From assembly GCA_964572155.1 (NCBI GenBank), contig CAZNDZ010000001.1, positions 412,630 to 476,629 on the forward strand: a stretch of DNA of 64,000 bases. The letters are read 5' to 3'. The first letter of the stretch is position 1, and every line of letters begins with the position of its first letter. A program made the translations under genes and the position numbers. Shown piece after piece: positions 3,494 to 61,975 of the stretch. The stretch comes from an uncultured Planctomycetales bacterium. Its GTDB lineage: Bacteria; Omnitrophota; Gorgyraeia; Zapsychrales; Fredricksoniimonadaceae. The notes under the pieces were generated by a model, which was given only the letters and a program-made list of their open reading frames with translations, was not told the origin of the DNA and searched no databases.

Positions 3494-4560
3494 GCTTTAA
3501 GACCAAGATCTTAACCATTAATTCCGCGGTGCCCGAAGCTGATCGTATTGCTGAGGCAGCACACGTCATCCGTCGTGGTGGTTTGGTGATTTTTCCGACG
3601 GAAACGGTCTATGGGATTGCCGCTGATGCCAATAATCCTAAAGCAATTGAGCGGCTTAACGCAGTTAAACAAAGATCGACAGAGAAAAGATATTCCGTCT
3701 TGGTTGCGCATCGCAGCGTTGTTGATAATTACAGCTGTTATACGGAGCCAAATTTATATAAGTTAATTGATAAGTATTGGCCAGGTCCTTTAACGGTCAT
3801 TGTTCCCTCACGAGATCCCATCGAGGAAACCATTGGAATTCGTATGCCGGATCATACGATTGCTTTGCGTCTTGTTGAAGAGTCAGGATGTACGATAGCC
3901 GCACCTTCAGCAAATATTGAAGGCAAGAAGCCGCCGACCAATGTGACGCAGGCCTTGGAAGATTTAGATGGTTTGGTTGATTTGGCCATTGATGGCGGAC
4001 CTGTTGATTTTGGCATCTCATCGACGATTGTTGATTTTACCAAGGCGTCCCCGACGGTTATCCGAGACGGGGTTATTTCTCAGCAAGATGTGGATCGCAC
4101 CGTTAATCGCAAATGCGTGTTATTTGTTTGCACGGGCAATAGCTGTCGATCGGTGATGGCAGAATATTTATTGAAGGCAAAGTTGATTGGTCGAGAAGAT
4201 GTGGAAGTTATCTCAGCAGGGACCAATGTGTATTTCAAATCACCCGCTAGCCATGAGACCATGACGGTGTTGCGTGAACAAGGTATTAATGCCAATATGC
4301 ATATGTCTAGGCAATTGGGGCGCGTGATGTTGCGCAAAGCAGATTTAATTTTTGCCATGACCCGCGGGCATCGCACCCAGATTTTAGATTTGGTGCCATC
4401 CGTCGAGAAACGGGTGTATTTGCTCAAAGAATTTTGTGAGAGCCGTGCGTATGAAACAGAGCCAGATGTTCCGGATCCAATTGGGCAAGGCCACGGCGAG
4501 TATCAAGATTGTTTGTTAACCATCAAAGAAGCGGTTGAAAAGATTGAAGGGTTATTGTAG
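3490..4560 (+). CDS. tsaC: bifunctional L-threonylcarbamoyladenylate synthase (YrdC/TsaC domain) fused to low-molecular-weight protein tyrosine/arginine phosphatase (YwlE-like)
   Basis: N-terminal YrdC fold (VIFPTETVYGIAADANNPKAIERL). C-terminal LMW-PTP P-loop (VLFVCTGNSCRSVMAEY, CX5R). Confidence 0.75.
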   Translation: MSFKTKILTINSAVPEADRIAEAAHVIRRGGLVIFPTETVYGIAADANNPKAIERLNAVKQRSTEKRYSVLVAHRSVVDNYSCYTEPNLYKLIDKYWPGPLTVIVPSRDPIEETIGIRMPDHTIALRLVEESGCTIAAPSANIEGKKPPTNVTQALEDLDGLVDLAIDGGPVDFGISSTIVDFTKASPTVIRDGVISQQDVDRTVNRKCVLFVCTGNSCRSVMAEYLLKAKLIGREDVEVISAGTNVYFKSPASHETMTVLREQGINANMHMSRQLGRVMLRKADLIFAMTRGHRTQILDLVPSVEKRVYLLKEFCESRAYETEPDVPDPIGQGHGEYQDCLLTIKEAVEKIEGLL

Positions 4561-6771: not shown

Positions 6772-7176
6772 ATGATTAAGATGGAATTATCCCGCATTAT
6801 CATCGACGAGCGCAGGCAAGATCAGGTGATTGTGCTTAAAGAAAAACAAGGGGATCGTCAAATCCCCATTGTGATCGGTTTCATGGAAGCTTCCAGCATT
6901 AAGATCAAGGTTTCCGGCGTTGATGTGCCACGCCCCATGACCCATGATTTATTTTTACAGGTCATTGATGTTTTAGGTGGCCGTTTGGAAAAGGTTATCA
7001 TTGATAAGTTGGTGAACAATACCTTTTATGCCAAGCTGGAATTAAAAGACCATGCTGGTGAAATCAGGTATATTGACGCACGCCCGTCGGATAGCATTGC
7101 CTTGGCTGTCCGTTTTAAAGCACCTATTTATGTCAGCGAAGATGTCATTGAGCAGTCAGCTGCTGTCAATCCATAA
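6772..7176 (+). CDS. bifunctional nuclease (BFN/DUF151) family protein
   Basis: 134 aa with a DUF151-like pattern (IVIGFMEASSI...MTHDLFLQVI). Confidence 0.55.
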   Translation: MIKMELSRIIIDERRQDQVIVLKEKQGDRQIPIVIGFMEASSIKIKVSGVDVPRPMTHDLFLQVIDVLGGRLEKVIIDKLVNNTFYAKLELKDHAGEIRYIDARPSDSIALAVRFKAPIYVSEDVIEQSAAVNP

Positions 7177-7177
7177 T

Positions 7178-8581
7178 ATGTCGCCGTCCATGATGTTCCC
7201 GCACTTTAATACGCTATCAGCTTTATGCAAGAAACATAAAGCTGATGTGTATATTGTAGGCGGTTATCTACGCAATCTTCGATTAAATACCCCAAGCCAA
7301 GACGTTGATTTTGCCGTCGATAAAGGTTCGTTAACCCTTGCCAAAGCTTTTGCCAAAGCCATCAAAGGTGCTTTTGTTGTATTAGATGATGCCCACGGGA
7401 GCGCAAGGGTGGTTTCGCGCGTCGAGGGGATGATCTGGACCTATGATTTTACGGATTTTCGCGGCAAGAATATCGACGCTGATCTAAAACTACGAGATTT
7501 TACCGTCAACACCTTTTGCCAATCCTTATTAACAGGGAAAGATGTCTCTCCAAAGAGTGCTTTAACGGATTTAAAATCTAAAACCATTCGCATGGTGTCA
7601 TCAACCGCATTTAGCGACGATCCGTTAAGATTGCTTAGAGCATTTAGTTTATCAGCGCAAACAGGTTTTAAAATCGCGCCTGCAACAGCCGCAGCCATCA
7701 AGCGTCAAGCACGCTTGATCATGTCTCCAGCGATGGAGCGAACTCGAGAAGAATTGTTTAAAATTTTTGAATCATCCCGCGCGCATGACACAATGCTTCA
7801 GTTAGAGAAATCTGATGTGTTGCTGCGCATCATCCCTCAACTTGAGGTGATGTTCGGGGTCAAGCAAGGTGGATATCATCATTTAGATGTATGGCGTCAT
7901 TCCATGATGGTCATGGATCAATTAGAAAAATTGTTGCTTGAGGTAAACCAAGATCCTAAGGTCGCATGCTACTTAGAAGAAGATATTGGCGGCGGCCATT
8001 CACGTCAGGCCTTGCTTAAATTTGCCGCCATCTTGCATGATATTGGAAAGCCAGCGACGAAGAAGAAAGAAAAAGACCGCATGACTTTTCATGGTCATGA
8101 AAACGTTGGTGCGGGCATCACGCGGCTTGTGGCCAAACATTTAAAGTTATCTGTTAAAGAACGTTACTGGTTAGAAGATGCGGTGCGTTGGCATTTACGC
8201 CCAGGATACCTATCTAATTTTAAACAACCATCCGCTAAAGCGGTCTTTCGTTATTTACGCGACACAAAATCAGAGGCTGTTGCCATTGCTTTGCTTGCCA
8301 TTGCAGATCAACGCTCAACCTGTGGTCCCAAAACAACAAAAACCAAGACCCGTCATCATGAAAGCATTTGCCGCATGGTGATTGCGGAATATTTCAAAGA
8401 TAAATCAAAGCCTGTTGTGCCACGTTTATTGACGGGCAATGACTTGATAAAGAAATTAAAATTAAAACCTTCGCCGTTGTTTTCTGAAATTTTAACCAAG
8501 GTTCAAGAAGAGCATGCGATTGGGAAGATCAGCACGCTAAAAGAAGCATTAGATATTGCAAAGCGGATGGCGCTAAAATGA
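7178..8581 (+). CDS. cca: CCA tRNA nucleotidyltransferase / poly(A) polymerase family with HD domain
   Basis: PolyA_pol head domain (VYIVGGYLRNLRL...DVDFAV) and HD motif (HDIGKP). The start is chosen at ATG 7178 (MSPSMMFP...) rather than the overlapping upstream extension. Confidence 0.75.
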   Translation: MSPSMMFPHFNTLSALCKKHKADVYIVGGYLRNLRLNTPSQDVDFAVDKGSLTLAKAFAKAIKGAFVVLDDAHGSARVVSRVEGMIWTYDFTDFRGKNIDADLKLRDFTVNTFCQSLLTGKDVSPKSALTDLKSKTIRMVSSTAFSDDPLRLLRAFSLSAQTGFKIAPATAAAIKRQARLIMSPAMERTREELFKIFESSRAHDTMLQLEKSDVLLRIIPQLEVMFGVKQGGYHHLDVWRHSMMVMDQLEKLLLEVNQDPKVACYLEEDIGGGHSRQALLKFAAILHDIGKPATKKKEKDRMTFHGHENVGAGITRLVAKHLKLSVKERYWLEDAVRWHLRPGYLSNFKQPSAKAVFRYLRDTKSEAVAIALLAIADQRSTCGPKTTKTKTRHHESICRMVIAEYFKDKSKPVVPRLLTGNDLIKKLKLKPSPLFSEILTKVQEEHAIGKISTLKEALDIAKRMALK

Positions 8582-9252: not shown

Positions 9253-11622
9253 ATGAAGACATTATCGCTTATCCTATGTATTTGTTTATTGCCATTTTCC
9301 CAAGTCCATGCAGAGCAGCTAGTCCTGCCTGCCGGTCAGGCAGGTTTGCCTGTGCCGGGAACCATGGTGCTTTTAAGTCCTGCTCAAAATCGCCCAACAC
9401 TCAAAGGCATTAAGGTTGATGCACAAAATCCTTTGAATCTAAATTTCATTGTGGATGTTGGGCAATCTGCGAGCGTTAGCCCAGAACAAGCGAACGAATT
9501 GGTCAAATATTTCCTTGCCGCATTAACCACACCAGAACAAGACCTTTGGGTTAATTTAAGTCCTTATGAAAAAGATCGCATTGTGCCAGAAAGTTTTGGA
9601 CAAACAGCCATGGGTCGTGATTTATTAGCACAAGATTACATCTTAAAGCAAGTCACCGCGTCTTTGGTCTATCCAGAAGGAGAGTCGGGAAAAGCGTTTT
9701 GGCGAAAGATTTATGAAAATGCCCGCACTAAAAACACGCCGATCAACACCTTTAATAAAGTTTGGATTGTTCCAGACAAAGTTGTGATTTACGAGAATTC
9801 AAGAGCAGGTACTGCCTACGTTGTTGAATCATCTTTAAAAGTGCTAACCGAGCAGGATTACCTTGCAGCGTCAAAGAATCATGCCATGGAAAGTAATGAT
9901 CACATTGTGCGTGATTTGGTGATCCCACAATTGACCAAAGAAGTTAATGAAGGCGCAAACTTTGCCCAATTGCGACAAGTTTATCAGGCCTTGATTTTAG
10001 CCACGTGGTATAAGAAAAAAATCAACGATAGCATTATTGCAAATGCCTATGCTGGAAAAAATAAGATCAAAGGCGTCGAATATAACGATACGCAAGACGC
10101 AAAAGCCATCTATGCACGATACCTCGAGGCATTTAAAAAAGGGGCTTACAATTATATTAAAGAGGAACAAGATCCACAAACACAGCAAATGATCCCACGC
10201 AAATATTTCTCAGGTGGTGTGCAATTAAGTAGTCTTGCAATGACCACGGTTTCAAATCGCCCAAGCGTTAATCCTGCAAAATTAGCAATGGTTGAAGCCA
10301 AGCTGATCCCCGACGCTGCCATGAACACAGATCAAGCAGCTGAGTCCAGTCGTATTTCAAATTTGCTCATTGACCTAGCTTCAACAGATTTAAATAAACG
10401 TAAAGCAGTGGCATTTACCTTGCCAAGTGATCGCGCCAATCCAACGCTGTTAACGCAGATGCTCATTAAAAATATTGTTGAACCTATTGGGATTGAAGAA
10501 GCGAGAGCAACGTATCAAGGGGATCAATTTGATTCAGTAAGGTCTAAGCGCAATGCACAAGCGGCAACTATTTTTGCGTTAGCAAATTATGTTAAAACCG
10601 TCGACTATAATGCAAGTGTATATAAAACATCTTTCGATATTGACAAAGCCAAAACAATTCGCGCGACGATCCAACAGGAACAGATGCAAGATGCGGGATT
10701 TCGCGCTGTTTTACAAGAGTTAAACAGATTTTATTTAGAAACCAATGATGCACAATTGAAGAAAGATTATACACGTTGGTTGAAAGCCTCTCTCGATAAG
10801 GTTTTATCAATAAAAGCCAATGATGCTGCCATGGCCATTAAGAAGAAAAGTTTTATGCAATATTGGGAATCGTTAAGAGAAGTGGTTAAGGGGGTGCCTG
10901 CAAAAGATATGCCGTGGGTTATTGTGCCATATACGGAGTATTTACCGACGAGCAAGCCCGAGATTCGTATCACGCAAAAGTTTGTTATGGGATTTTCAGT
11001 TAGAACGGTTGAAATATCATTTTCTGAAGATGAGATACTCGATTTACGGATTCGCGATAGTAATCTTTTGTACAATAACACTATTCAAGATAATTTCTTC
11101 ATGCAATCTGGTCGCAGCGAACAGCTGTTGGCCATCATCTTGACGTGGCTTGGGAATAAACAGGTGTTTCCTGAATTCAAAAACCTGAACATGGTTACGG
11201 TGAGTCCGCTTGCTAGAGCGTTTTTTAAGCGGATGGTTAGCAAATGGCGCAAAGAGGGCGTTATTAAATCTCAAGTCATAAAAACAAAGAGAGGTAAGCA
11301 TTCCGAAAGGTTTAGTATTCGTCTTGATTTGTTGGATCCAAATAAGATTAAAAAGTCTATCGGCAGACCCTATATTCGAAAACCAGTTGTGCATACCGAT
11401 CATGCGATGACAAACAACGGGGGTATTGATTTAAATCCTAAGGGCATGGATATGCAGGCAGCGACGGATTCTAAAACAATTCAGTTTAAGTTGGATGCCG
11501 CAATGCTTTCACAATTGGAGGGTATGCAAGGGTTTACGCCACAGGTTTTGCGTATTGTGCCCCTGCCTTCTGGTCAAGCGGGGAGTAAGGCATTGTGGGG
11601 TTTTCTTGAAAGTCAGCCATGA
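9253..11622 (+). CDS. large secreted protein of unknown function (paralog A)
   Basis: 789 aa with a signal peptide (MKTLSLILCICLLPFSQVHA|EQ). The N-terminal ~330 aa and the C-terminal GGIDL-containing ~60 aa are clearly homologous to ORF 34175..36523. No known domain recognised. Confidence 0.6.
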   Translation: MKTLSLILCICLLPFSQVHAEQLVLPAGQAGLPVPGTMVLLSPAQNRPTLKGIKVDAQNPLNLNFIVDVGQSASVSPEQANELVKYFLAALTTPEQDLWVNLSPYEKDRIVPESFGQTAMGRDLLAQDYILKQVTASLVYPEGESGKAFWRKIYENARTKNTPINTFNKVWIVPDKVVIYENSRAGTAYVVESSLKVLTEQDYLAASKNHAMESNDHIVRDLVIPQLTKEVNEGANFAQLRQVYQALILATWYKKKINDSIIANAYAGKNKIKGVEYNDTQDAKAIYARYLEAFKKGAYNYIKEEQDPQTQQMIPRKYFSGGVQLSSLAMTTVSNRPSVNPAKLAMVEAKLIPDAAMNTDQAAESSRISNLLIDLASTDLNKRKAVAFTLPSDRANPTLLTQMLIKNIVEPIGIEEARATYQGDQFDSVRSKRNAQAATIFALANYVKTVDYNASVYKTSFDIDKAKTIRATIQQEQMQDAGFRAVLQELNRFYLETNDAQLKKDYTRWLKASLDKVLSIKANDAAMAIKKKSFMQYWESLREVVKGVPAKDMPWVIVPYTEYLPTSKPEIRITQKFVMGFSVRTVEISFSEDEILDLRIRDSNLLYNNTIQDNFFMQSGRSEQLLAIILTWLGNKQVFPEFKNLNMVTVSPLARAFFKRMVSKWRKEGVIKSQVIKTKRGKHSERFSIRLDLLDPNKIKKSIGRPYIRKPVVHTDHAMTNNGGIDLNPKGMDMQAATDSKTIQFKLDAAMLSQLEGMQGFTPQVLRIVPLPSGQAGSKALWGFLESQP

Positions 11623-13645: not shown

Positions 13646-14394
13646 TGAGACTATTTGTAATTTTATTAATGCTGATTATGCCTATAAAAGCAAATGCGGA
13701 TATGATCGGTGATGTTGAAGCGGCTGTTTTAGATAAAAATTATGCACAAGGTCGTGACTTAGCTTCCAAGATTTTAAAAAGTACGGCTGATTCTAAAGCT
13801 CGCATCAATGCAGAATATTATTTGGGCTTATGTCAATTACGCTTGGGTCAATATGCGCAAGCTCGCAGCGCGTTTCAAATTGTCATGGGTGCAGCAACAG
13901 CTCAAGATCTTTATGAGAAAGCCGCCTTAGGTTTGATCGAAGGGTTGTATATGGGCAGCTTTTATAGTGATGCTCTTAAAGAAGGCAAGAAACTCCTGAG
14001 TCGATATCCGAATTCTCCCTCAAAGAGTTTGATTTATTTGAAAATAGCCCGCACAAATTTGAAGTTGATGAAATGGGAAGAAGCGAAGAGTTATTTAAAT
14101 AAAGTCATCAACGAATTCCCGCAAAGTTTTGAAGCGCCCATTGCTAGAAGTTTACTTGAAGAAAAAGAATTTTTTGCCGTACAGGTTGGTTCATTCTTAG
14201 ATAAAGACAAAGCCATGCATTTGGTGGAAGATTTGAAAGCTAAGAATCAATATGCTTACATTGTTGAAACCATCATGCCAGACGGCAAGAAATTCTATCG
14301 CGTGCGTGTTGGACAAATTTCAGCGCTTGATCAAGCTCAAAGCGTGCAAACTCAATTATCCCGTCAGGGATACCCGTCTCTCATTTATCCTTAA
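13642..14394 (+). CDS. periplasmic TPR-repeat protein with C-terminal SPOR (peptidoglycan-binding) domain
   Basis: Signal peptide, TPR-like helical repeats, and a C-terminal FFAVQVGSF...YRVRVGQ SPOR-type fold. Confidence 0.55.
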   Translation: MMRLFVILLMLIMPIKANADMIGDVEAAVLDKNYAQGRDLASKILKSTADSKARINAEYYLGLCQLRLGQYAQARSAFQIVMGAATAQDLYEKAALGLIEGLYMGSFYSDALKEGKKLLSRYPNSPSKSLIYLKIARTNLKLMKWEEAKSYLNKVINEFPQSFEAPIARSLLEEKEFFAVQVGSFLDKDKAMHLVEDLKAKNQYAYIVETIMPDGKKFYRVRVGQISALDQAQSVQTQLSRQGYPSLIYP

Positions 14395-15284
14395 TGTCAC
14401 AAAAAATTATTTTCATCGTTGGTCCAACGGGTGTGGGTAAGTCAGCCCTAAGTCTTGCCATGGCACAACAATGCCAAGGCGAAATTGTTTCATGTGATGC
14501 CATGCAGGTGTACCGTGAGGTTAACATTGCCTGTGACAAACCGACCCTTGAAGCGCGGGCGGCAATACCGCATCATATGATCGATGTTGCGTCCGTCGTT
14601 GATGAATACGATGTGGCCCAGTTTGCAAAGGCCGCTAATAAAGCCATCCTTGAAATTTTGTCTAGAAATAAAACGCCCTTGGTGGTGGGCGGCAGTGGCA
14701 TGTATGCGACAGTGCTGCTTGATGGGATCTTTGACGCGCAATATCGCGACGAAGATTTACGCAAGAAATTGTTTGAGAAAGAATCAAGTCAATTGCATGC
14801 AGAGCTTGTAACAAAAGACCCCGTTGCTGCGAGTAAGATTCATCCCAATGATGCTATGCGTTTAGTGCGTGCGTTAGAAGTGATATATTTATCAGGCCGC
14901 CCCATCTCAGAGCTGCAGCAAAAACGTGAGGGGTTGTGGGGTAAGTATGCTATAACCATGGTAGGGTTAGATCGTAAGCGGTCGTTGCTTTATGAAAAGG
15001 CGGAAGCCCGAATTGAGGAAATGTTTCATAAAGGATTAGTTGAAGAAATACGCGCCGTGTCCCCATTACCAATTAGCCGAACGGCTGCAACGTTAATTGG
15101 CATACCTGAGGTTCGGGGATATATCGATGGAACACATGATTTAGAGCGCGCGAAATATTTGATGAAGTTATATACCAGACGGTATATCAAGCGTCAGCTC
15201 ACATGGTTTAGACGAGACAAGCGCATTACTTGGTTTGATGTGGATCAATACAGCTCGCAAGAAATCATTAAAAGGGTGTTATGA
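14394..15284 (+). CDS. miaA: tRNA dimethylallyltransferase
   Basis: GPTGVGKS P-loop and an overall MiaA sequence; 296 aa. Confidence 0.9.
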   Translation: MSQKIIFIVGPTGVGKSALSLAMAQQCQGEIVSCDAMQVYREVNIACDKPTLEARAAIPHHMIDVASVVDEYDVAQFAKAANKAILEILSRNKTPLVVGGSGMYATVLLDGIFDAQYRDEDLRKKLFEKESSQLHAELVTKDPVAASKIHPNDAMRLVRALEVIYLSGRPISELQQKREGLWGKYAITMVGLDRKRSLLYEKAEARIEEMFHKGLVEEIRAVSPLPISRTAATLIGIPEVRGYIDGTHDLERAKYLMKLYTRRYIKRQLTWFRRDKRITWFDVDQYSSQEIIKRVL

Positions 15285-31590: not shown

Positions 31591-31626
31591 TGATATTGGG
31601 TTGTGGATCGAGGCTGTTGACATTTG

Positions 31627-31654
31627 TTCTTTTTTAAGTAGAATAAGCATCTCT
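31627..31654 (+). promoter_or_regulatory. sigma70-like promoter for tRNA-Phe (TTGACA-16-TAGAAT)
   Basis: Hexamers read ~5 nt upstream of the tRNA 5' end. Confidence 0.35.
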
Positions 31655-31659
31655 TTTAT

Positions 31660-31732
31660 GCCGAGATAGCTCAGGTAGTAGAGCGCGGGCCTGAAAAGCC
31701 CGGCGTCGACAGTGCAAGTCTGTCTCTCGGCA
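31660..31732 (+). tRNA. tRNA-Phe (anticodon GAA) with non-canonical T-loop UGCAAGU and D-loop A18
   Basis: Cloverleaf folded by hand: acceptor GCCGAGA/TCTCGGC, anticodon loop CTGAAAA, 73 nt, near-identical to E. coli tRNA-Phe apart from the elbow. No encoded CCA. Confidence 0.75.
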
Positions 31733-31830
31733 CTTTTTTCCTCCCATCACAAATTCTTCAAAAAATAGTGAAACTTTTAAGCGCCTGTCCTTGTCTAAAT
31801 GATTGAAACAATCAAACCAAGGAGATTAAC

Positions 31831-32325
31831 ATGGTGCCCCAAAAAGCTTTAGTTCTTACTACAATTGTTTTAGCTGGGATTGTCTTACTCCAACCCAATG
31901 TTTCTTATGCCCGCGATAGTCATCGCGATTACAGACATGATGATCGGTATGAAGATCGTCATGCGTATCGGTATCATGATGCCCCACGTAACGGTTTTTC
32001 GATATCTTTTGGTGGAACACGTTTTTGGTATAGCGAAGGGCGATATTATCGATTCGAAAAGCCCTGCGTTGTGTATCGACCTCCCGTGACGTATGTGCAA
32101 GTGCCAAGCCATGTGCTGGTTGCTGGACCGACGGTAATCCATGAATCGACACCGGTTGTACTTCAAGAAGATGGTTTTTATACGGTCAATATCCCTAATG
32201 AAAAAACAGGGGGCTATACCGAGGTTACATTGAAGCGTACGGATAAAGGATTTTTAGGACCACAAGGTGAGTTTTATCCAGACTTCCCCAAGGTGGCACA
32301 ATTAAAAGCCATGTATGTTAAATAG
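31831..32325 (+). CDS. secreted His/Arg/Asp/Tyr-rich protein, hypothetical (possible metal-binding)
   Basis: Signal peptide, then SHRDYRHDDRYEDRHAYRYHD repeats; 164 aa. Confidence 0.4.
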   Translation: MVPQKALVLTTIVLAGIVLLQPNVSYARDSHRDYRHDDRYEDRHAYRYHDAPRNGFSISFGGTRFWYSEGRYYRFEKPCVVYRPPVTYVQVPSHVLVAGPTVIHESTPVVLQEDGFYTVNIPNEKTGGYTEVTLKRTDKGFLGPQGEFYPDFPKVAQLKAMYVK

Positions 32326-32351
32326 AAAATATTCTAAAATAGGACTAAGAT

Positions 32352-32456
32352 ATGATTAAAATAATATTAACCGTGGTGGTGTTAGGAAGTTTTTTGTTAA
32401 TCCCAGCCATAGCAGCGCATATATTGCAAGATGGCAATGAGAATGAAACTATTTGA
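32352..32456 (+). CDS. 34-aa hydrophobic peptide upstream of the ECF sigma gene (possible small membrane protein)
   Basis: MIKIILTVVVLGSFLLIPAIAAHIL... has weak RBS support. Confidence 0.15.
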   Translation: MIKIILTVVVLGSFLLIPAIAAHILQDGNENETI

Positions 32457-32492
32457 TCGTTATATGTGTCTAAGTTAGTAGAAGAGGGTTTG

Positions 32493-33041
32493 ATGGATTT
32501 AGTCAGTGATGACATTTTGAAGAAAGCAGCGGCAGGGGATGTGGATGCCTTTGAGCAAATTTATCGTGCCTATGCCCCGTTTGTTTTTAATGTGGCGCTG
32601 CGGATGTTACAAAAACGTGAAGATGCTGAGGAAATTGTGCAGGAGGTTTTTGTGATGGTGCATGGTAAGCTCAATGGGTTTATGTTCCGTTCATCCTTAA
32701 AGACATGGGTGTATCGCATCACGGCTAATCAATGCTTAAACTATTTAGAAAAGCATAAACGTCACAACAAAGGTCGCGTTGATTTTGAAGATGTGAGCGG
32801 GTCCTTAAGCACAGCTAACGAAACACATGTTAGTATAGAGAAAGAAGATCAGGCGCACAGGGTAGAACAATTGTTGAGTTTGCTTAACCCCGATGAGAAA
32901 GCTTGCGTGGTGTTGCGTAGCATTGAGGGTTTAAGCTATGAAGAAATCTCCAAAAGTTTAAATGTCAATATCAATACGGTCAGAACCAGACTAAGAAGAG
33001 CACGTGAAAAAATGATGGACCAGCGTGTGGAGGTGATTTAA
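32493..33041 (+). CDS. ECF-type RNA polymerase sigma factor (sigma-70 family, group 4)
   Basis: Regions 2 and 4 are present (VALRMLQKREDAEEIVQEVFV...; C-terminal HTH). ATG 32493 with a GAAGAGGG RBS is preferred over GTG 32466. Confidence 0.8.
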   Translation: MDLVSDDILKKAAAGDVDAFEQIYRAYAPFVFNVALRMLQKREDAEEIVQEVFVMVHGKLNGFMFRSSLKTWVYRITANQCLNYLEKHKRHNKGRVDFEDVSGSLSTANETHVSIEKEDQAHRVEQLLSLLNPDEKACVVLRSIEGLSYEEISKSLNVNINTVRTRLRRAREKMMDQRVEVI

Positions 33042-33464
33042 ATGAACTGTGAACAATCCCAAGAAATGCTATTATCCGATTACCATGACGGACGTCTAAG
33101 TGCGCATCAGCGTCGAGAGATTGATCAACATCTAACCGTTTGCCCAGCGTGCAAGCTTTTATCCGAGCGTATTTATGATCAAACAATTAAGCCATTTAAT
33201 CAAACCGAACATGCCATGCCAGATGATTTTTGCTGGAGCCAGATCAAACGCCGCATTGCTCAAGTGCCAGCACCTGCTCCAAAGCCATTTTGGCTGTTGC
33301 GCCCAGCATTGGTTTTTTCTAGTTTGTGTGTGATGTTAATGATCGGGGGCGTTATCTTTAAGCAATATACAATCAGTCAAACACCGTCGATTGCGTATAT
33401 GCTAAGCAGTGACACGGACACCAATGATGAAGTCAGTGCAAGCATCGAAGAGTATTTTTTATAA
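33042..33464 (+). CDS. anti-sigma factor (zf-HC2 type) with a single TM segment
   Basis: H-x3-C-x2-C motif (HLTVCPACKL) and a TM segment (ALVFSSLCVMLMIGGVIF). Starts directly after the sigma gene stop. Confidence 0.65.
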   Translation: MNCEQSQEMLLSDYHDGRLSAHQRREIDQHLTVCPACKLLSERIYDQTIKPFNQTEHAMPDDFCWSQIKRRIAQVPAPAPKPFWLLRPALVFSSLCVMLMIGGVIFKQYTISQTPSIAYMLSSDTDTNDEVSASIEEYFL

Positions 33465-33483
33465 AAACAACAAGGAGTATTCT

Positions 33484-33933
33484 ATGAAAAGAGCATTAAC
33501 AGCCGTTTGTTTGAGCATGGTTTTAGCAGCACCCATGGCCCACGCCAAGATGGATGGGGGCATGTCCCACGAACGTGGCATGCGCATGGAAAAGCGCATC
33601 GATGAAATGTTTTCTCAATTAGATCTTACTGCAGAACAAAAGAAATTGATCGAGGCCAATAGAGCAAAAAATAAAGAATCACGACGAGCCATTATGCAAG
33701 AAATGAAAAATAGCATGAAGGCAACAGGTGATGAATTAAAAAAGACCGATTTAGATATGGCAAAAATCACGGCCTTGCATGAAGAACAAAAGAAATTATT
33801 TAACAAGATGTCCGACGATCGCTTCAAGTCAGTGTTGGAAGTGCGCAAGATTTTAACCAAAGAGCAATTCATTAAGTTCTTAGAAATGATGGAAAAACGG
33901 GTTAAGCATGACAATCCTTTTAAAGAGCAATAA
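33484..33933 (+). CDS. periplasmic Spy/CpxP/ZraP-like (LTXXQ) stress protein
   Basis: Signal peptide MKRALTAVCLSMVLAAPMAHA and repeated LTAEQKKL / LTKEQFIKF LTXXQ motifs; 149 aa. Confidence 0.55.
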   Translation: MKRALTAVCLSMVLAAPMAHAKMDGGMSHERGMRMEKRIDEMFSQLDLTAEQKKLIEANRAKNKESRRAIMQEMKNSMKATGDELKKTDLDMAKITALHEEQKKLFNKMSDDRFKSVLEVRKILTKEQFIKFLEMMEKRVKHDNPFKEQ

Positions 33934-33952
33934 TCGATAAATCCTAAAGCTT

Positions 33953-33968
33953 CCTGCCTGCCGGCAGG
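33953..33968. terminator. GC hairpin CCTGCC-tgcc-GGCAGG after the Spy-like gene
   Basis: Inverted repeat read directly. It has no strong T-run, so its terminator function is uncertain. Related in sequence to the palindrome at 43530-43568. Confidence 0.3.
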
Positions 33969-34027
33969 GACGCTTCTATATAAGCTTCTTGACCTCCGAT
34001 TGAAAATCAAGTATAAAAGACTCTCGT

Positions 34028-34100
34028 GCTGGCGTAGCTCAGTTAGTAGAGCAGGGCATTCGTAATGCTCAGGCCGGGGGTGCAATTCCTCTCGCCAGCT
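34028..34100 (+). tRNA. tRNA-Thr (anticodon CGU) with non-canonical T-loop UGCAAUU and D-loop A18
   Basis: Hand-folded cloverleaf: acceptor GCTGGCG/CGCCAGC, anticodon loop TTCGTAA, 73 nt. Preceded by TTGACC-17-TATAAA. Confidence 0.65.
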
Positions 34101-34174: not shown

Positions 34175-36523
34175 GTGAAATCAATACGATGTACGATCCT
34201 TATCCTTGTTGCATTTGTGGTCAACACGTTTGGCCCTATGCCTGTTTTTGCCGGTGAAGTTGTTGTCCCCGTCATGCCAACACCTGGGACAATGGTTTCT
34301 TTAAGCCAAGCATTTACCCCAGCACATTTAAAAGGCATTGTCATTCATCCAGATAATGCGTTGCAATTTGATTTCTTAATTCACAAGGGCGACGGAAATC
34401 TAACAGTGGATCAGAAATCAGAAGAGTATAATAAGCTCATCAAATATTTCTTGGCCTCATTGACGGTTGCGGATAAAGACCAATGGGTGAACCTCTCCCC
34501 ATATGAAAAGAATCGCATTGTCGAAGACAATTTTGGTAAGACCGAAATGGGCCGTGACTTGCTCGCCCAAGATTACTTGCTTAAACAAATCACCTCGTCG
34601 CTCATGTATCCTGAAAGCGGACTGGGTAAATCATTTTGGGATAAAGTTTATGCAAAAGCATACCAAGAACTCGGTAATACAAATATTCCAGTCAACACCT
34701 TCAATAAAGTTTGGATCGTCCCAGATCAAGCCGTCATCCACGAGAGTGGCAACACCGCCTTGATCGTCAAGAGTCACTTAAAGGTCATGTTAGAAGAAGA
34801 TTATTTAGCCATCGAAAAAAATAAGGTAATCCCCACTGATTTGCATCAAAAAACAGATGCAAATCAAAGCGCGGGGACCGCTCAAGCTATTCGGCAAATT
34901 ATACTCCCAGAGCTTGAGCGTGAAGTCAACGAAGGCAAAAACTTTGCCCAATTACGTCAAGTCTTCTCAGGGATGATTTTAGCGACGTGGTATAAGCGCG
35001 CCTTAAAAGAATCACTATTAGGCAAAGTCTATGCCGATAAAGCCAAGGTCAAAGGCATTGATCAGAATCCTGAAAACAATGAAAAGATCTACCAACAATA
35101 CCTACAAGCCTTCAAGAAAGGCGTTTACAACTACATTAAAGAAGACAAAGACCGCTACACCAACCAACTAATCCCCAGAAAATATTTCGCGGGTGGGGTG
35201 CAAAATATTACTGACAAGATTATGGATAGAGCAATTGTTAGTAAAGAGATTATTCAACGTGATATTTTTAATAATAGCCCAACGTTAGATGCGGCAATGA
35301 CAAATGTTTCAGTTAGAACTGCTGTCTTAGGTGGATTTCAAGCAGCAAAAAAACAAGCGCAGAATGAAAAGCTAAATCAACCGGTGCAGGATCAGAATAA
35401 TCAATCGAGTAAGAATGAGGCGATGATGAGTCGTAACATGCCAAGGTTTGCCGCCGCAACGCTTGCGTTTGGACTTTTCTTTCAAGGTCGATTATATGAT
35501 CCTCAAGCCACAGTATCGAATCCCGTTGCAGGGATTTATAGTGTCATTTCGCCAAAGAGTTTCTCAAAGTTTGAGAATATGATCGACAAGATGCCAAATG
35601 ATTCAAGAAAAAAAAGATTTAGTATGTTTAAGGGTAAGTTCAGGCAAAAATCCATTATGAGTGTTATTGATAAGATCATCGACGAAGAAGATGGTCGTGG
35701 AAGAGGGGCCACAACCAAAGTAATATTTGAACGATTAAGAAATGATTATCTTGGTCCATTAGGATTTGATAGGTTTACTGACGAAGAAAGTAAACAAACT
35801 GAAATCAATGCTTTGGTTGATGCGTTGAGGCCGGATGTTGAAGCATATCTGACCATACGTAATCTTTTATTAAATAGATATGTAACATCAGATGCAGCCA
35901 TGAGTGGCAATAAAACATTAAATGCTATCATAGTAGCAGCCTTTGCTATGAGCATTGGCCTTGGTTATGCGATTTATGATATAAGAACAACTCCTGAGGA
36001 ACAAAATTCTGTAGCAACCATAAAGGGATTATTTGGTTCAAAATACATTTCTTCTAATATTTTAGAAACGGTCCAGATGGATGGGAGTTATATATATTCT
36101 GTCGAGAATAAAATGGCTAAAACAGAGCAAGAAAATAGGTTTATAAAGTTTATGGGAGATGTAAGGGATAATAAAATTAACCCTGCAGAAATAGATGAAT
36201 TTATTAAAGATAACAACATTGACATAAATGGTGATTTTGGGAAAGCTGTATTAAGATTAAGAAACAGCAATGCTCGTGGGGTGATCGTAGGGATTAATCC
36301 GGATGGTTCCATTAGCATCAAAGAAGATAAAGCAATGACTAAGGGTGGTATTGATTTGGATGGGGCTAATTTGGATTTGTTGATTAAGCGGGATGGGAAG
36401 GGTGTGCCGTTGCCGTTGGCTCAACAAGATATATCACAATTAAATGAGATTGAAGGGTTTGTGCCGCGGATTATTGAGATTCGTCCTGCCATGAATTTAT
36501 CTGTTTTTTCAAAGGGTAATTAA
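34175..36523 (+). CDS. large secreted protein of unknown function (paralog B)
   Basis: 782 aa with a signal peptide. The N-terminal ~330 aa (VNLSPYEKNRIV...FNKVWIVPD...NEGKNFAQLRQV...IPRKYFAGGVQ) and the C-terminal GGIDL region are homologous to 9253..11622. The middle is low-complexity and divergent. Confidence 0.6.
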   Translation: MKSIRCTILILVAFVVNTFGPMPVFAGEVVVPVMPTPGTMVSLSQAFTPAHLKGIVIHPDNALQFDFLIHKGDGNLTVDQKSEEYNKLIKYFLASLTVADKDQWVNLSPYEKNRIVEDNFGKTEMGRDLLAQDYLLKQITSSLMYPESGLGKSFWDKVYAKAYQELGNTNIPVNTFNKVWIVPDQAVIHESGNTALIVKSHLKVMLEEDYLAIEKNKVIPTDLHQKTDANQSAGTAQAIRQIILPELEREVNEGKNFAQLRQVFSGMILATWYKRALKESLLGKVYADKAKVKGIDQNPENNEKIYQQYLQAFKKGVYNYIKEDKDRYTNQLIPRKYFAGGVQNITDKIMDRAIVSKEIIQRDIFNNSPTLDAAMTNVSVRTAVLGGFQAAKKQAQNEKLNQPVQDQNNQSSKNEAMMSRNMPRFAAATLAFGLFFQGRLYDPQATVSNPVAGIYSVISPKSFSKFENMIDKMPNDSRKKRFSMFKGKFRQKSIMSVIDKIIDEEDGRGRGATTKVIFERLRNDYLGPLGFDRFTDEESKQTEINALVDALRPDVEAYLTIRNLLLNRYVTSDAAMSGNKTLNAIIVAAFAMSIGLGYAIYDIRTTPEEQNSVATIKGLFGSKYISSNILETVQMDGSYIYSVENKMAKTEQENRFIKFMGDVRDNKINPAEIDEFIKDNNIDINGDFGKAVLRLRNSNARGVIVGINPDGSISIKEDKAMTKGGIDLDGANLDLLIKRDGKGVPLPLAQQDISQLNEIEGFVPRIIEIRPAMNLSVFSKGN

Positions 36524-45333: not shown

Positions 45334-45653
45334 CGCGGGGTGGAGCAGCCCGGTAGCTCGCCAGGCTCAGCACGTAACATGGGCGTCTAGTTGAGAAATC
45401 AATTAGAAGATTATCTGTCAAAGTCGGTGAAGCCTGAAAATGGTAATACCGAGCCAAGTTCCGATTACCTCAGAAATATTTAGGAAATCGGAAAAGGTGT
45501 AGAGACTAGATGGCAGACGTCCTCCTCGAAAGAGAGGATGAAGGTATAGTCCAGACCACAAACCGTGAACCCAACGTGGTTCATGGGCGGCGAAAGTCGT
45601 AGATGGTACGCATAACCTGGAGGTCATAGGTTCAAATCCTGTCCCCGCAACCA
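45334..45653 (+). tRNA. initiator tRNA-fMet (anticodon CAU) interrupted by a group I intron; exons 45334..45367 and 45611..45653, CCA encoded
   Basis: Exons join to CGCGGGGTGGAGCAGCCCGGTAGCTCGCCAGGCT|CATAACCTGGAGGTCATAGGTTCAAATCCTGTCCCCGCAACCA. This is almost identical to E. coli tRNA-fMet and has the C1xA72 initiator hallmark. Confidence 0.8.
45368..45610 (+). ncRNA. group I self-splicing intron (243 nt) in the anticodon loop of tRNA-fMet
   Basis: R-like element GTGTAGAGACTAGA (45497-45510). S-like element AAGGTATAGTCC (45541-45552) forming P7 (GACTA/TAGTC). P8-like hairpin CCTCCTC-GAAA-GAGAGG. The 5' exon ends in U and the intron ends in G (45610). No ORF inside. Confidence 0.65.
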
Positions 45654-46653: not shown

Positions 46654-49137
46654 ATGAATCGCAATTCTTTGCGTGTTAGTTGTGTGGTGGTGTTTTGGAT
46701 TTCGTTGTTGTGCATCAGCCTCGAACTGTTTCAAACCCGCATCTTGAATCTTAAAGCATGGAACCATGTCGTCTATACCATTATCCCTTTTGCCATGTTG
46801 GGTTATGGGATTGGGGCGAACTTGGTTTTTATTTTTAGCGCGCAATTAAAGAAGATTAATTTTGAGAAGTTATTGGCGTTGTTGTTATTAGCAACAGCGT
46901 TTTCAAGTTTAGCGACGGCATATTGGATCAAAGATCTGCCACTCAACGTCGAATACATCACCACCATCTTTAGCAATGTTAAGTCTGTGGGCATGTTGTT
47001 GCTAGCCTACAGTGTTTTTATGATCCCCTTTATCATCATCGGCTTTATGATTGTGCATATTTTTATGCATAGCCCAGCACATACGCACCGCCTGTATTTC
47101 TGGGATTTGTTGGGCGCGGGGGCGGGGGCATTTTTATTTTTTATTTTGATCAATCATTTAGCTGTTTTTCATTCGTTGATGCTTTTAGCATGCATTAGCG
47201 TGTTAACGGCGTTGTGGATTTGGCGGCCTAAGTTTCATTTGGTGTTATCAGCGGCGAGTATTTTGATTTTCTTAGGAGCGTTGACGTTCCTGCCAGAACC
47301 AAGTCATTATGCCATTGATCCAAATAAAGGATGGAAGTTGATCCCTGGGACATATGATTCAAAAGACTGCGAACAATTGGTGTCTCGTTGGCATCCATTG
47401 GGACGGACAGATATTTTTTGGGTTAAGAGCGACGCTGCACGTGAGCGCATGTTTGCCTCAAACCGAGGCACCTTTGAAATCAATGTTGATCCAGCACCGG
47501 ATGTTGCATATATCTCGACTAATTTCTTAGCGGGTAGTCCCATTTATGATTTATCGCCCTCAGGAATTGCCAAACGCAATTCAACCTTAAAGCTTTTTAG
47601 TCAAGACATGGAAGTGGCCTATACTTTGGTCAAAGATCCTAAGGTGGTGATCATTGGCGCTGGTGGTGGTCGTGATATTTTCATGGCACGCTCTCATGGG
47701 GCAACCAATATTTTAGGCGCTGAGATTAATCCTGGGATTTATAACGAGATGATGCCAGGCGGCAAGATGTATGATTTTTCCGGCCGCGTTTACACAAGCC
47801 CAAATTCAAAGATTTATAACATAGACGGAAGAAATTTAATTAAGAGTTTGCCCTCAGCCAGTCAAGACATTGTGATTTTAAACGGGGTAGATACATTTTC
47901 AGGATTGTCGTCAGGGGCTTATGCATATGCCGAAAGTTATTTATATACCCAAGAAGCAGTGGAAGATTATTTGCGGGTGTTAAATGACAAAGGCATCTTA
48001 AATGTGTATCGCTGGACTTTTGATGACATGCCACGGGAAGAATTGCGATTGCATGCGATCGTGATTGCTGCCTTAGACAAGATGGGTATTAAGAATCCAG
48101 AAGATCACATTATGATTGGGTTAGCAGGCTGGTCGATCTTTTTAGTTAGAAAAGAGCCTTTCACGCTGCAAGAGCGCAACATGGTTTTCGATTATTTTAA
48201 ACATCATCGGGTGGTGCCTGCATTTCCTGCGGAGGAGTGGCTTAAAAAAAGTGGCTCATTGGGCCTTGTGTTTGATGACTATGCGCAATTGTTTAAACAG
48301 CATCGGCAACACTTGCTGGAAGAAGCTTATAAGTATGACATCAGCGTCGTCAATGATGATAAGCCCTTTTTTTATAAGTATTACAAACTCAATTTGTTTA
48401 ATCCCTTTAAACCAGTAGCATATCATTACACAGGCACGGTGATTTTCTTTACCCAAGGGATGATTTTCCTTGAGGCATTGATTTTTATCACCCTCTTTGT
48501 CTTTTTGCCGTTGGTGGTATTTAAAAAAGATGGCGTCGCGGCATTGCCTAAAAACCGTCTAAAGCCTTTTATTACCTATTTTGCTTGTTTAGGCATTGGG
48601 TATATGTTTATTGAAATTGCCTTGATGCAGCGCTTCACCATTTTATTAGGAAGTCCAATTTATTCGATTAGCTTGGTGCTTGCAGTCTTGCTTGTGGCCA
48701 GTGGTTTAGGTAGTTTTGCTATACCATGGTTTGATAAAATTTCTAAAAACGATCATCAACAACTGATTCAATGGGTCACAGGGGTGATGGTTGTTTATGT
48801 ATTAGGCTTGGTGATTTTAGGAACAAGGGTTTTTGATATGTTCATGCCGTTAAATGTTGCATGGCGCATGTTTATCGTCGCTGTTCTAACATTTCCTCTG
48901 GGATTCTTGTTGGGTGTTTATTTCCCCTATGGGTTACGCGCTTCAAGCGCGCATCATGCAGGAACAATCCCTTGGGGCTGGGGCATTAATTGTGGGTTTA
49001 GTGTTTTGGGATCGATTGCCGTTATCATGATCGCGCAATTCCAAGGATTTAATAATGTATTGATTTTATCATGTGTGATCTATTTGATAGCCGCCTTGGC
49101 CTTTAAAAGGCTCGCACAGTCAGGAGCAGGTTCATGA
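46654..49137 (+). CDS. membrane-anchored spermidine synthase-like (polyamine aminopropyltransferase fold) protein
   Basis: N- and C-terminal multi-TM blocks flank a VVIIGAGGGRDI...ILNGVDTF SpeE-like methyltransferase-fold core; 827 aa. Confidence 0.55.
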   Translation: MNRNSLRVSCVVVFWISLLCISLELFQTRILNLKAWNHVVYTIIPFAMLGYGIGANLVFIFSAQLKKINFEKLLALLLLATAFSSLATAYWIKDLPLNVEYITTIFSNVKSVGMLLLAYSVFMIPFIIIGFMIVHIFMHSPAHTHRLYFWDLLGAGAGAFLFFILINHLAVFHSLMLLACISVLTALWIWRPKFHLVLSAASILIFLGALTFLPEPSHYAIDPNKGWKLIPGTYDSKDCEQLVSRWHPLGRTDIFWVKSDAARERMFASNRGTFEINVDPAPDVAYISTNFLAGSPIYDLSPSGIAKRNSTLKLFSQDMEVAYTLVKDPKVVIIGAGGGRDIFMARSHGATNILGAEINPGIYNEMMPGGKMYDFSGRVYTSPNSKIYNIDGRNLIKSLPSASQDIVILNGVDTFSGLSSGAYAYAESYLYTQEAVEDYLRVLNDKGILNVYRWTFDDMPREELRLHAIVIAALDKMGIKNPEDHIMIGLAGWSIFLVRKEPFTLQERNMVFDYFKHHRVVPAFPAEEWLKKSGSLGLVFDDYAQLFKQHRQHLLEEAYKYDISVVNDDKPFFYKYYKLNLFNPFKPVAYHYTGTVIFFTQGMIFLEALIFITLFVFLPLVVFKKDGVAALPKNRLKPFITYFACLGIGYMFIEIALMQRFTILLGSPIYSISLVLAVLLVASGLGSFAIPWFDKISKNDHQQLIQWVTGVMVVYVLGLVILGTRVFDMFMPLNVAWRMFIVAVLTFPLGFLLGVYFPYGLRASSAHHAGTIPWGWGINCGFSVLGSIAVIMIAQFQGFNNVLILSCVIYLIAALAFKRLAQSGAGS

Positions 49138-60928: not shown

Positions 60929-61792
60929 ATGAAAAAATCTATGCCTAACCAACCAACCAATGTAGATTTTGTAATACAAAAAACCATCTGTAGAGACGCG
61001 ATTTCCGCCGGAGAAGGATCAGCCTTTCGCTGGTATCGTGTCTTTCTTATGGTGGCCCTTTTGGTGAATATTATTTTTTGTCGTATTCCCAATGCCCATG
61101 CAGATTTGCGTAACGGTTTGGTTGGGTGGTGGAAGTTTGACGAGGTAAGCGGAAATGCCATTGATTCTAGTGGGCAGAGTAATACGGGGACACCGAATGG
61201 AACAACAATAGCTTCTAATTGCAAAAAGAGGGGATGTCGTCAGTTTAATGGGACTAGTGATTATATCAACTTGGGCACAATACTCCCGTCTACGCAATCA
61301 ACGATGTCAATTTCTGCTTGGATAAAATGGGATGGTGGTGGCAGCGGGTTAATGCGCGTGATAGGTCGAAAGAACAATGCCCAAATCAATTGGGCGTATG
61401 GTTTAGTCGTAAACACTGCAGGAAGCATTACTTTTGAGCGAGCTAGAAATACCTTAGCTGTTGGGGATAATTCTATAACCAGCTCAGAAACTCTTGTTGC
61501 TAATCAGTGGTTTCACATCGTATGTGTACAGCAAAGCGACACTGCTTTAAGTATTTTTGTGAATGGTACGCGTACGGATAAAGTGGTAACAACTGGAACA
61601 TGGACACCAGATGCAGGTGAATCGCTTTATATAGGAAGATTTAGTTCGTCAATAACACAATATTTCTCTGGATTTATGGACGATGTCCGAATTTACAACC
61701 GCGCGTTGACCGCTCAAGAGGTGTATGATCTTTATATCCCGGGGATTGTGCTACGTAATGGGGTGGTTCGGAATGGGAGGATTAATCAGTAA
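60929..61792 (+). CDS. LamG-like (concanavalin A-like lectin/glucanase) domain protein
   Basis: LVGWWKFDEVSGNAIDSSG...WFHIV...DDVRIYNRAL matches the Laminin_G_3 pattern; N-terminal TM/signal. Confidence 0.65.
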   Translation: MKKSMPNQPTNVDFVIQKTICRDAISAGEGSAFRWYRVFLMVALLVNIIFCRIPNAHADLRNGLVGWWKFDEVSGNAIDSSGQSNTGTPNGTTIASNCKKRGCRQFNGTSDYINLGTILPSTQSTMSISAWIKWDGGGSGLMRVIGRKNNAQINWAYGLVVNTAGSITFERARNTLAVGDNSITSSETLVANQWFHIVCVQQSDTALSIFVNGTRTDKVVTTGTWTPDAGESLYIGRFSSSITQYFSGFMDDVRIYNRALTAQEVYDLYIPGIVLRNGVVRNGRINQ

Positions 61793-61884: not shown

Positions 61885-61975
61885 AACGATAAAGGCAAAC
61901 CCAGAGTAATCTGGGGACGCAAAGCCATGGATCCTTATAAGTCTCAAGGACAGCCAGGTTACCGAAACCGCAAGC
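61885..61975 (+). promoter_or_regulatory. c-di-GMP-I (GEMM) riboswitch aptamer
   Basis: GGCAAACC-[CCCAGA GTAA TCTGGG hairpin with GNRA loop]-GACGCAAAGCC-[P3 hairpin TCCTT...AAGGA]-GCCAGGTTACCGA. Matches the GEMM consensus blocks GGCAAACC / GGACGCAAAGCC / CC.GGUUACCG. About 70 nt of expression platform precedes ATG 62043. Confidence 0.75.

Follow-up and report, generated by a model that had tools for sequence, protein, structure and literature searches.

In a 64,000-nucleotide (nt) stretch of contig CAZNDZ010000001.1 (GenBank assembly GCA_964572155.1, positions 412,630 to 476,629), which we refer to as the window, the genes for tRNA-Phe(GAA) and tRNA-Thr(CGU) encode A18 and G55 at the elbow in place of the usual G18 and U55, and both retain the G19:C56 pair. 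Both loci are likely to be working elongator tRNA genes, inherited with the chromosome, whose elbow contains an alternative tertiary pair. They exemplify an alternative state that is widespread: in Omnitrophota, Patescibacteria, Elusimicrobia, Mollicutes and DPANN archaea it has become fixed in certain isoacceptors, and in some phage tRNA arrays it extends to the majority of them. A conventional elbow has G18 inserted between the purine at 57 (R57) and A58 and bonded to pseudouridine 55 (Psi55), with G19 paired to C56 (PMC4810234, PMC7912444). Reviews describe Psi55 as 'universally conserved' (PMC4810234) and G18/G19 as 'virtually universally conserved' (PMC4117946); they take the G18-Psi55 pair to be universal in cytoplasmic tRNAs, and TruB with its product Psi55 to be the most conserved tRNA modification. 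The covarying A18-G55 combination shows that a second way of building the elbow has proved stable in evolution.

The tRNA-Phe gene occupies 31660-31732 on the forward (+) strand, with the end placed at 31733 by ARAGORN, and the tRNA-Thr gene occupies 34028-34100 on the same strand. Each is 73 nt long without an encoded CCA, and each was found by ARAGORN and by the Rfam model RF00005, which is covered fully (model positions 1-71) with scores of 61.4 bits for tRNA-Phe and 59.3 bits for tRNA-Thr against a gathering score of 29. According to the sequence and the ARAGORN structure string, the 8-nt D-loop of tRNA-Phe, AGGTAGTA (31673-31680, +), places A18 at 31677 and G19 at 31678, and its T-loop TGCAAGT (31713-31719, +) reads U54 (31713), G55 (31714), C56 (31715), A57 (31716), A58 (31717), G59 and U60. 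The corresponding 8-nt D-loop of tRNA-Thr, AGTTAGTA (34041-34048, +), has A18 at 34045 and G19 at 34046, and the T-loop TGCAATT (34081-34087, +) reads U54 (34081), G55 (34082), C56 (34083), A57 (34084), A58 (34085), U59 and U60. Both T-loops therefore consist of the pentanucleotide UGCAA and two further nucleotides in a 7-nt loop closed by G53:C61, and match the UGNRA class in sequence. The tertiary set U8, A14, G19, U54, C56 and A58 is present in both tRNAs, with A at 18 and G at 55. The sequence-only reading of this DNA had proposed A18-G19 together with U54-G55-C56-A57-A58 in the two tRNAs, and ARAGORN, Rfam and direct reading of the sequence all agree with it. A register with G18G19 and U55 was looked for in both genes and is ruled out by the sequence and the ARAGORN structure strings: GG is absent from the tRNA-Thr D-loop and lies at positions 15-16 in that of tRNA-Phe, and neither T-loop has a U adjoining C56.

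The remainder of each cloverleaf is unexceptional. By direct reading, tRNA-Phe has the discriminator A73 and A36-A37-A38 in the anticodon loop, and tRNA-Thr has G1:C72, C2:G71 and the discriminator U73. Judged by the established identity rules for the two amino acids, the elements match the anticodons at the sequence level, with G34, A35, A36, A73 and U20 for Phe, and G1:C72, C2:G71, G35 and U36 for Thr.

The gene order of the window is common to the loci L166 (Candidatus Omnitrophota) and L172 (which bears a Planctomycetales label and has Omnitrophota-like tRNAs), at protein identities of 50-70%, and comprises SecA, Lnt, an LpxL-like acyltransferase, a HAD hydrolase, tRNA-Phe, tRNA-Thr(CGU), a tetratricopeptide repeat (TPR) protein and an MFS transporter. 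The window therefore comes from an Omnitrophota-type bacterium, and its two tRNAs lie in a conserved housekeeping neighbourhood. The same contig is found in several public assemblies, and L001 carries both tRNAs in identical form. Nineteen distinct Omnitrophota-type tRNA-Phe orthologues could be compared: their stems are 100% paired, ten of the pairs have undergone compensatory changes, and A18, G19, U54, G55, C56, A57 and A58 are invariant. In at least 27 species-level genomes the tRNA-Phe gene is found at this conserved housekeeping site, and no second Phe gene was found in the 8-kb loci examined around it. The 15 tRNA-Thr(CGU) orthologues are equally well preserved, with all four stems 100% paired and compensatory changes in 13 pairs. 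At the same syntenic site, ten of them have G18/U55 and five have A18/G55 (the window, L143, L166, L172 and L200), none is mixed, and G19:C56 is invariant in all 15. The acceptor and anticodon arms are common to A18/G55 and canonical Thr genes, those of L200 and the window resembling L229 and those of L166 resembling L189, which fits a change in place. Among the matches listed, then, A18/G55 in Omnitrophota is a feature of tRNA-Phe at all loci found and of tRNA-Thr(CGU) in a sub-group only. These sequences are under purifying selection. Neither stem decay nor loss of conservation, either of which might have pointed to pseudogenes, was found among the 19 Phe and 15 Thr orthologues, and the sequence comparison indicates that both genes in the window are selectively maintained and are not pseudogenes or errors.

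Positions 18 and 55 covary strictly far beyond this one group. ARAGORN was run on all fetched loci, and only tRNAs that lay outside the search-pattern selection were counted. In phage loci chosen for an A18 tRNA there were 440 tRNAs with G18/U55, 120 with A18/G55, three with A18/U55 and two with G18/G55; the genome loci gave 192, 10, 0 and 0 in the same order, and the controls, 120 phage loci picked because they have a canonical tRNA-Phe, gave 757, 4, 2 and 0. Pooled over about 1,500 tRNAs, the counts are 1389 G18/U55, 134 A18/G55, 5 A18/U55 and 2 G18/G55, so that only seven tRNAs are discordant (Fisher p = 5e-184), and one of the two G18/G55 cases, a tRNA-Ala in L104 with the D-loop AACAGGA, can equally be read as A18-G19. 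When the phage collection was queried for G55 while position 18 was left free, 82 loci were returned, of which 80 have A18, and the remaining two are not called tRNAs by ARAGORN. The neighbouring positions hold: in the 130 A18/G55 tRNAs outside the pattern selection, C56 is present in 130, U54 in 123 and A58 in 127, and A57 is commoner than in canonical tRNAs (51% vs 22%, p = 2e-11). Altogether, independent samples yielded 300 different A18/G55 tRNA sequences. Because the two departures, A18 and G55, covary strictly, the 18:55 pair appears to have been replaced and not lost. The proposal that A18 and G55 are a compensatory covariation with G19:C56 kept, and not sequencing noise, is thus borne out by both the Thr orthologues, which are never mixed, and the pooled counts.

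Two minor patterns also turned up. Matches to an A18/U55 pattern are mostly one repeated tRNA-Lys(CUU)-like sequence, CCGCCGATAGCTCAGAAAGTAGAGC...GGTTCAATCCCTGC, found on 33 phage contigs, many of them from sample 3300045988 (for example L007, L014 and L016); its T-arm has an internal mismatch, and ARAGORN gives it no 7-nt T-loop. A third, rarer elbow state, G18/C55 with the T-loop TCCGAxT, affects Lys, Gln, Pro, Gly, Met and Glu tRNAs of phage and Patescibacteria loci such as L114, L043, L099, L174, L176 and L196, with 18 cases among the A18-selected loci and five among the controls, and looks like a second tolerated departure from U55.

The A18/G55 state is widely distributed. A scan of species-representative genomes for the A18 plus G55 pattern returned at least 120 loci. 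By record title, and among the matches listed, they include about 51 loci of Patescibacteria (the candidate phyla radiation, CPR), 23 of Omnitrophota with four further Omnitrophota-like loci labelled Planctomycetales, six of Mollicutes, four of Elusimicrobia, four of DPANN archaea and scattered others. Outside the pattern, A18/G55 was met in Tyr, Cys, Gly and Met tRNAs. The state is conserved within lineages for particular isoacceptors and yet is polyphyletic. The sequence-only reading had envisaged a lineage-specific feature of a subset of elongator tRNAs. The subset survives within Omnitrophota, where it comprises Phe and some Thr-CGU genes; the restriction to a lineage does not, given the many phyla and phages involved, nor does the restriction to elongators. 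In L169 (Candidatus Paceibacterota), an initiator-like tRNA-Met(CAU), its 1:72 pair mismatched, combines the D-loop AGTAGTA with the T-loop TGCAATT and so is A18/G55; elongator tRNAs are thus not strictly the only carriers of the alternative elbow. The presence of an EF-Tu gene (tuf) beside tRNA-Thr(GGU) was considered as a sign of a core-chromosome location and was set aside, since EF-Tu lies within the 8-kb locus in 2 of 30 cases, which is uninformative for Patescibacteria.

In phage contigs, A18/G55 is found in 21 tRNA types as named by ARAGORN, with 47 anticodons, and so in nearly every isoacceptor. It clusters by genome, accounting for 4 of 803 other tRNAs (0.5%) in the control loci vs 60-80% in some arrays. 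The rich arrays include L114 (20 of 31 tRNAs), L104 (17 of 22), L100 and L121 (22 of 27), L055 (10 of 14) and L040 (9 of 11); L103 is also among the IMG/VR contigs with 60-80% A18/G55 arrays. Class II Leu, Ser and Tyr tRNAs are represented in them, and the GC content of the loci ranges from 35 to 65%. BLAST of the A18/G55-rich arrays against GenBank phages gave generic tRNA similarity only, and two phages whose arrays were examined, Gordonia phage Smoothie and Vibrio phage Achelous, have canonical tRNAs throughout. No relatives of L104, L043 or L040 were detected by megablast, and searches with the L040 portal protein gave hits of at most 27% identity. Ro60/TROVE-vWA genes adjoin large phage tRNA arrays in L104 (2857-4599), L040 (11688-13211) and L119 (6342-7961), and in the controls L284 and L313. 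Ro60 was rejected as a specific companion of A18/G55-rich arrays, as it also lies beside canonical arrays (3 of 117 loci vs 2 of 120). L104 further encodes a LigT-like phosphoesterase, an AAA_33 kinase-like protein and SIR2; calcineurin-like phosphoesterases are present in L040 and L043, and an ATP-dependent ligase in L043.

What might hold together an elbow with A18 and G55? A G at position 2 is frequent in T-loops other than those of tRNA. In the T-loops of FMN and cobalamin riboswitches the consensus is UGNRA, of which UGHAA performs best. The base inserted there, between positions 4 and 5, comes from a partner loop, is an adenosine in 99.96% of cases, and hydrogen-bonds twice through its Hoogsteen face to the sugar edge of the position-2 G (bioRxiv 10.1101/2022.12.26.521914). 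The combination of UGCAA with A18 is exactly that of the riboswitch T-loop, from which we infer a sheared-type A18-G55 pair. A18 would intercalate between A57 and A58 with its Hoogsteen edge facing the sugar edge of G55. The loop would keep its seven nucleotides and the reverse-Hoogsteen pair U54-A58, and G19:C56 would persist as the outer pair. A sheared A:G pair had been guessed at from the sequence, and the guess fits the description of the riboswitch adenosine, if the analogy holds. G19:C56 provides the flat face that the ribosome, RNase P and processing enzymes recognise; since it is kept, we propose that the L-shape and all elbow-docking functions are preserved, and the unchanged outer face would leave A18/G55 tRNAs usable by the ribosome and by RNase P, RNase Z and the CCA-adding enzyme. 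That these tRNAs are used in translation is also suggested by the phage arrays, in which A18/G55 versions of nearly every isoacceptor make sense only for translation.

By established chemistry, G55 cannot be converted to Psi55, nor A18 to 2'-O-methylguanosine 18 (Gm18). The TruB product Psi55 and the TrmH product Gm18 would accordingly be impossible on A18/G55 tRNAs, whose elbow would have to be stable without them; U54 is present, and 5-methyluridine 54 (m5U54) would be possible. A consequence for TruB and Psi55 had been anticipated, and neither tRNA in the window has a U55 to isomerise.

Compared with the canonical elbow, which is built from G18-Psi55, G19:C56, T54-A58 and a purine at 57, the two tRNAs of the window share the cloverleaf, the 8-nt D-loop, the 7-nt T-loop, G19, U54, C56, R57, A58 and a purine at 18, and differ in having A:G at 18:55. 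Like the UGNRA riboswitch T-loops, they have one of the favoured pentanucleotides, UGCAA, followed by two bulged nucleotides (10.1101/2022.12.26.521914). Unlike in the riboswitches, the receptor is the D-loop of a tRNA, which also provides G19 for a Watson-Crick pair with position 3; UGNRA with an intercalated adenosine has been described in riboswitches, and its geometry in tRNA would be the same by extrapolation. Metazoan mitochondrial tRNAs also depart from the conserved set of G18, G19, U55 and C56; there, the contacts between D-loop and T-loop are reduced or lost and the partner machinery co-evolves (PMC4810234), whereas in the window the elbow contact appears to be replaced by an equivalent one in tRNAs that are otherwise standard.

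There is also an artificial parallel. In work by Doyon, Zagryadskaya, Chen and Steinberg (J Mol Biol 2004), functional suppressor tRNAs selected in E. coli reportedly had G18 whenever position 55 was U, and A18 whenever it was G. This rule of a 'specific purine trap' is the same 18/55 rule that we observe. Unlike those clones, which reportedly came from a randomised library of one suppressor tRNA, the state in the window is natural, long fixed, and shared by many isoacceptors, phyla and phages.

Could the exchange be adaptive? It is possible, if rather doubtful, that A18-G55 tRNAs form a distinct natural class that works without Psi55 and Gm18 and that selection has favoured again and again in ultra-small or host-dependent prokaryotes as well as in entire phage tRNA sets. 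The proposed reason is that their folding and elbow recognition would be independent of, or invisible to, TruB, TrmA and TrmH in the role of chaperones or modifiers and tRNA-targeting enzymes of host or phage. The explanation on which this builds, that the A18-G55 elbow escapes or no longer needs TruB/TrmA/TrmH as modifiers or chaperones, or escapes tRNA-directed nucleases of host or phage, and is a modification-independent, 'orthogonal' elbow, seems to us unlikely. It would account for the clustering by genome, from 0.5% in control phage loci to 60-80% in L114, L104, L100 and L121, and for the cellular carriers being mostly small-genome or host-dependent organisms (Patescibacteria, DPANN, Mollicutes and Omnitrophota, among the matches listed). 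The chemical exclusion of Psi55 and Gm18 agrees with it, as do the RNA-repair and Ro60 genes beside some of the A18/G55-rich arrays. However, no specifically co-occurring trans-acting factor was found at these loci, and Ro60 also accompanies the canonical arrays of L284 and L313. Moreover, most tRNAs of each cellular genome are canonical, among them the tRNA-fMet of the window and Thr, Asp and Val tRNAs in relatives, and TruB must therefore still be needed there. We know of no elbow-specific tRNA nuclease. Were the adaptive explanation true, the A18-G55 combination would be a natural 'orthogonal elbow' and not a neutral equivalent of the canonical one.

Not every tRNA with G55 takes part in translation. 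The staphylococcal non-proteogenic (NP) tRNA-Gly species have UGC or UGU for T-Psi-C, hence G55 without pseudouridine, and dihydrouridine (D) at 19; they bind EF-Tu and the ribosome poorly and serve peptidoglycan synthesis (PMC7826273). Like them, the tRNAs of the window are natural bacterial tRNAs with G55 and no possibility of pseudouridine at 55, and Phe-tRNA is a known substrate of non-ribosomal transferases (PMC7826273). The two tRNAs could by this token be specialised non-ribosomal tRNAs that serve a Phe- or Thr-tRNA-dependent transferase, particularly if the window genome has another tRNA-Phe. We regard this as very improbable. NP-tRNA-Gly is confined to staphylococci and to Gly, and its D19 means that G19:C56 cannot form and that the elbow contacts are lost, unlike in the window, where the G19:C56 pair is retained and the covariation of A18 with G55 would preserve the elbow. 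The tRNA-Phe gene stands at a housekeeping locus in at least 27 species-level genomes with no second Phe in the 8-kb loci, the Thr(CGU) orthologues alternate between both states at one locus and so are the same functional gene, and the phage arrays hold A18/G55 versions of nearly every isoacceptor, in sets that span all amino acids.

The frequency of A18/G55 tRNAs in phage contigs raises another explanation, namely that the two genes were recently acquired with a phage or mobile element and are not native genes changed in place. Phage tRNA-Phe genes in L026 and L103 share AGGTAGTA and TGCAAGT with the Omnitrophota gene, and tRNA genes are common integration sites. Such an origin has very little probability in view of the housekeeping synteny, which is kept across relatives at only 50-70% protein identity, of the acceptor and anticodon arms that A18/G55 Thr genes share with canonical orthologues, and of the surroundings of tRNA-Phe and tRNA-Thr in the window, where no integrase or phage genes were found. 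An artefact, whether an error of sequencing or assembly, a decayed gene copy or a fold read in the wrong register, is suggested only by the rarity of the pattern in textbook tRNAs and can be dismissed in the face of identical genes in independent assemblies of the same organism (L001), 300 distinct A18/G55 sequences from independent samples, compensatory stem changes and the absence of an alternative register.

Several points weigh against our preferred reading, that these are ordinary translational tRNAs with a replaced elbow pair. The geometry of the elbow would be carried over to A18/G55 tRNAs by analogy. In yeast SUP4, a G18A change is rescued by U20G with no change at 55 (PMC4117946), and the 18/55 swap is therefore not universally accessible. 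The organism names are the record titles of metagenome-assembled genomes, some of which may be mis-binned. The scan pattern demands the D-arm GCTCAG..AGTAGAGC, so that the dominance of Phe(GAA), with 69 matches, and Thr, with 45, among the matches listed is partly built in. Finally, the A18/G55 tRNA-Phe is probably the sole tRNA-Phe of Omnitrophota and of many Patescibacteria, but a second, canonical tRNA-Phe could lie elsewhere in the source genome, of which 64 kb plus about 6-8 kb per side were read; no further tRNA genes were found in the 6-8 kb recovered beyond each end of the window.

The components of this elbow are already known: G55 in one special tRNA-Gly, the UGNRA T-loop with an adenosine in riboswitches and the 18/55 rule reported from laboratory selection. 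No description of natural A18/G55 tRNAs was found in the full-text literature searched, and what appears to be new is that nature has long and widely used the A18/G55 elbow, both in the everyday tRNAs of several phyla and in the tRNA sets of phages. It ties tRNA elbows to the riboswitch and ribosomal RNA class of T-loops. The A18/G55 tRNAs are natural substrates on which the functions of Psi55 and Gm18, and of TruB and TrmA as chaperones, could be studied, and a scaffold for engineered tRNAs that bypass elbow-directed modification. As a simple sequence marker that clusters by genome, the combination may also report host-phage conflicts over tRNA. Annotation pipelines and modification-calling methods that assume U55 should be used with caution.

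Candidate expression signals lie beside both genes. A sigma-70-type promoter-like site, TTGACA-16-TAGAAT (31617-31644, +), which matches the consensus at 11 of 12 positions in a promoter scan, ends 15 nt upstream of tRNA-Phe and, as a consensus match, may serve as its promoter; the T-run CTTTTTT (31733-31739, +) follows directly 3' of the gene. By sequence reading, a possible tRNA-Thr promoter, TTGACC-17-TATAAA (33989-34017, +), ends 10 nt upstream of that gene and falls outside the scan rule, which demanded T at the last position of the -10 hexamer. The 2.3-kb spacer between the two tRNAs (31831-33933) contains a 164-amino-acid (aa) open reading frame (ORF), an extracytoplasmic function (ECF) sigma factor, a zf-HC2 anti-sigma factor and an LTXXQ periplasmic protein. 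Because the two tRNAs are only 0.2-1 kb apart in the relatives L200, L172 and L166, the sigma/anti-sigma cassette looks like a lineage insertion.

The window also contains a canonical counterpart. An initiator tRNA-fMet(CAU) with an encoded CCA, split by a group I intron, was found at 45334-45653 on the + strand by ARAGORN with introns allowed. Its elbow is canonical, with the D-loop AGCCCGGTA and the T-loop TTCAAAT, as the sequence-only reading had it, and the C1-A72 mismatch is an initiator feature. The intron spans approximately 45358-45610, interrupts the anticodon loop and matches Rfam RF00028 with 74.9 bits over 45358-45569. Group I introns in tRNA-fMet are known from cyanobacteria; that of the window belongs to an Omnitrophota-type genome.

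Genes for tRNA maturation are present elsewhere in the window, in the form of Sua5/TsaC fused to a low-molecular-weight phosphatase domain (3490-4560), a CCA-adding enzyme with an HD domain (7052-8581) and MiaA (14394-15284); no gene for TruB, TrmA or TrmH was found within the 64 kb. Three long ORFs have no Pfam match (9253-11622, 789 aa; 34175-36523, 782 aa; 46654-49137, 827 aa). Near the end of the window, a c-di-GMP-I-GGC riboswitch aptamer (61885-61967; 69 bits against a gathering score of 59) precedes an ORF of 505 aa without a Pfam match (62043-63560), and the gene for a Laminin_G_3 domain protein (60929-61792) lies just upstream of the aptamer.

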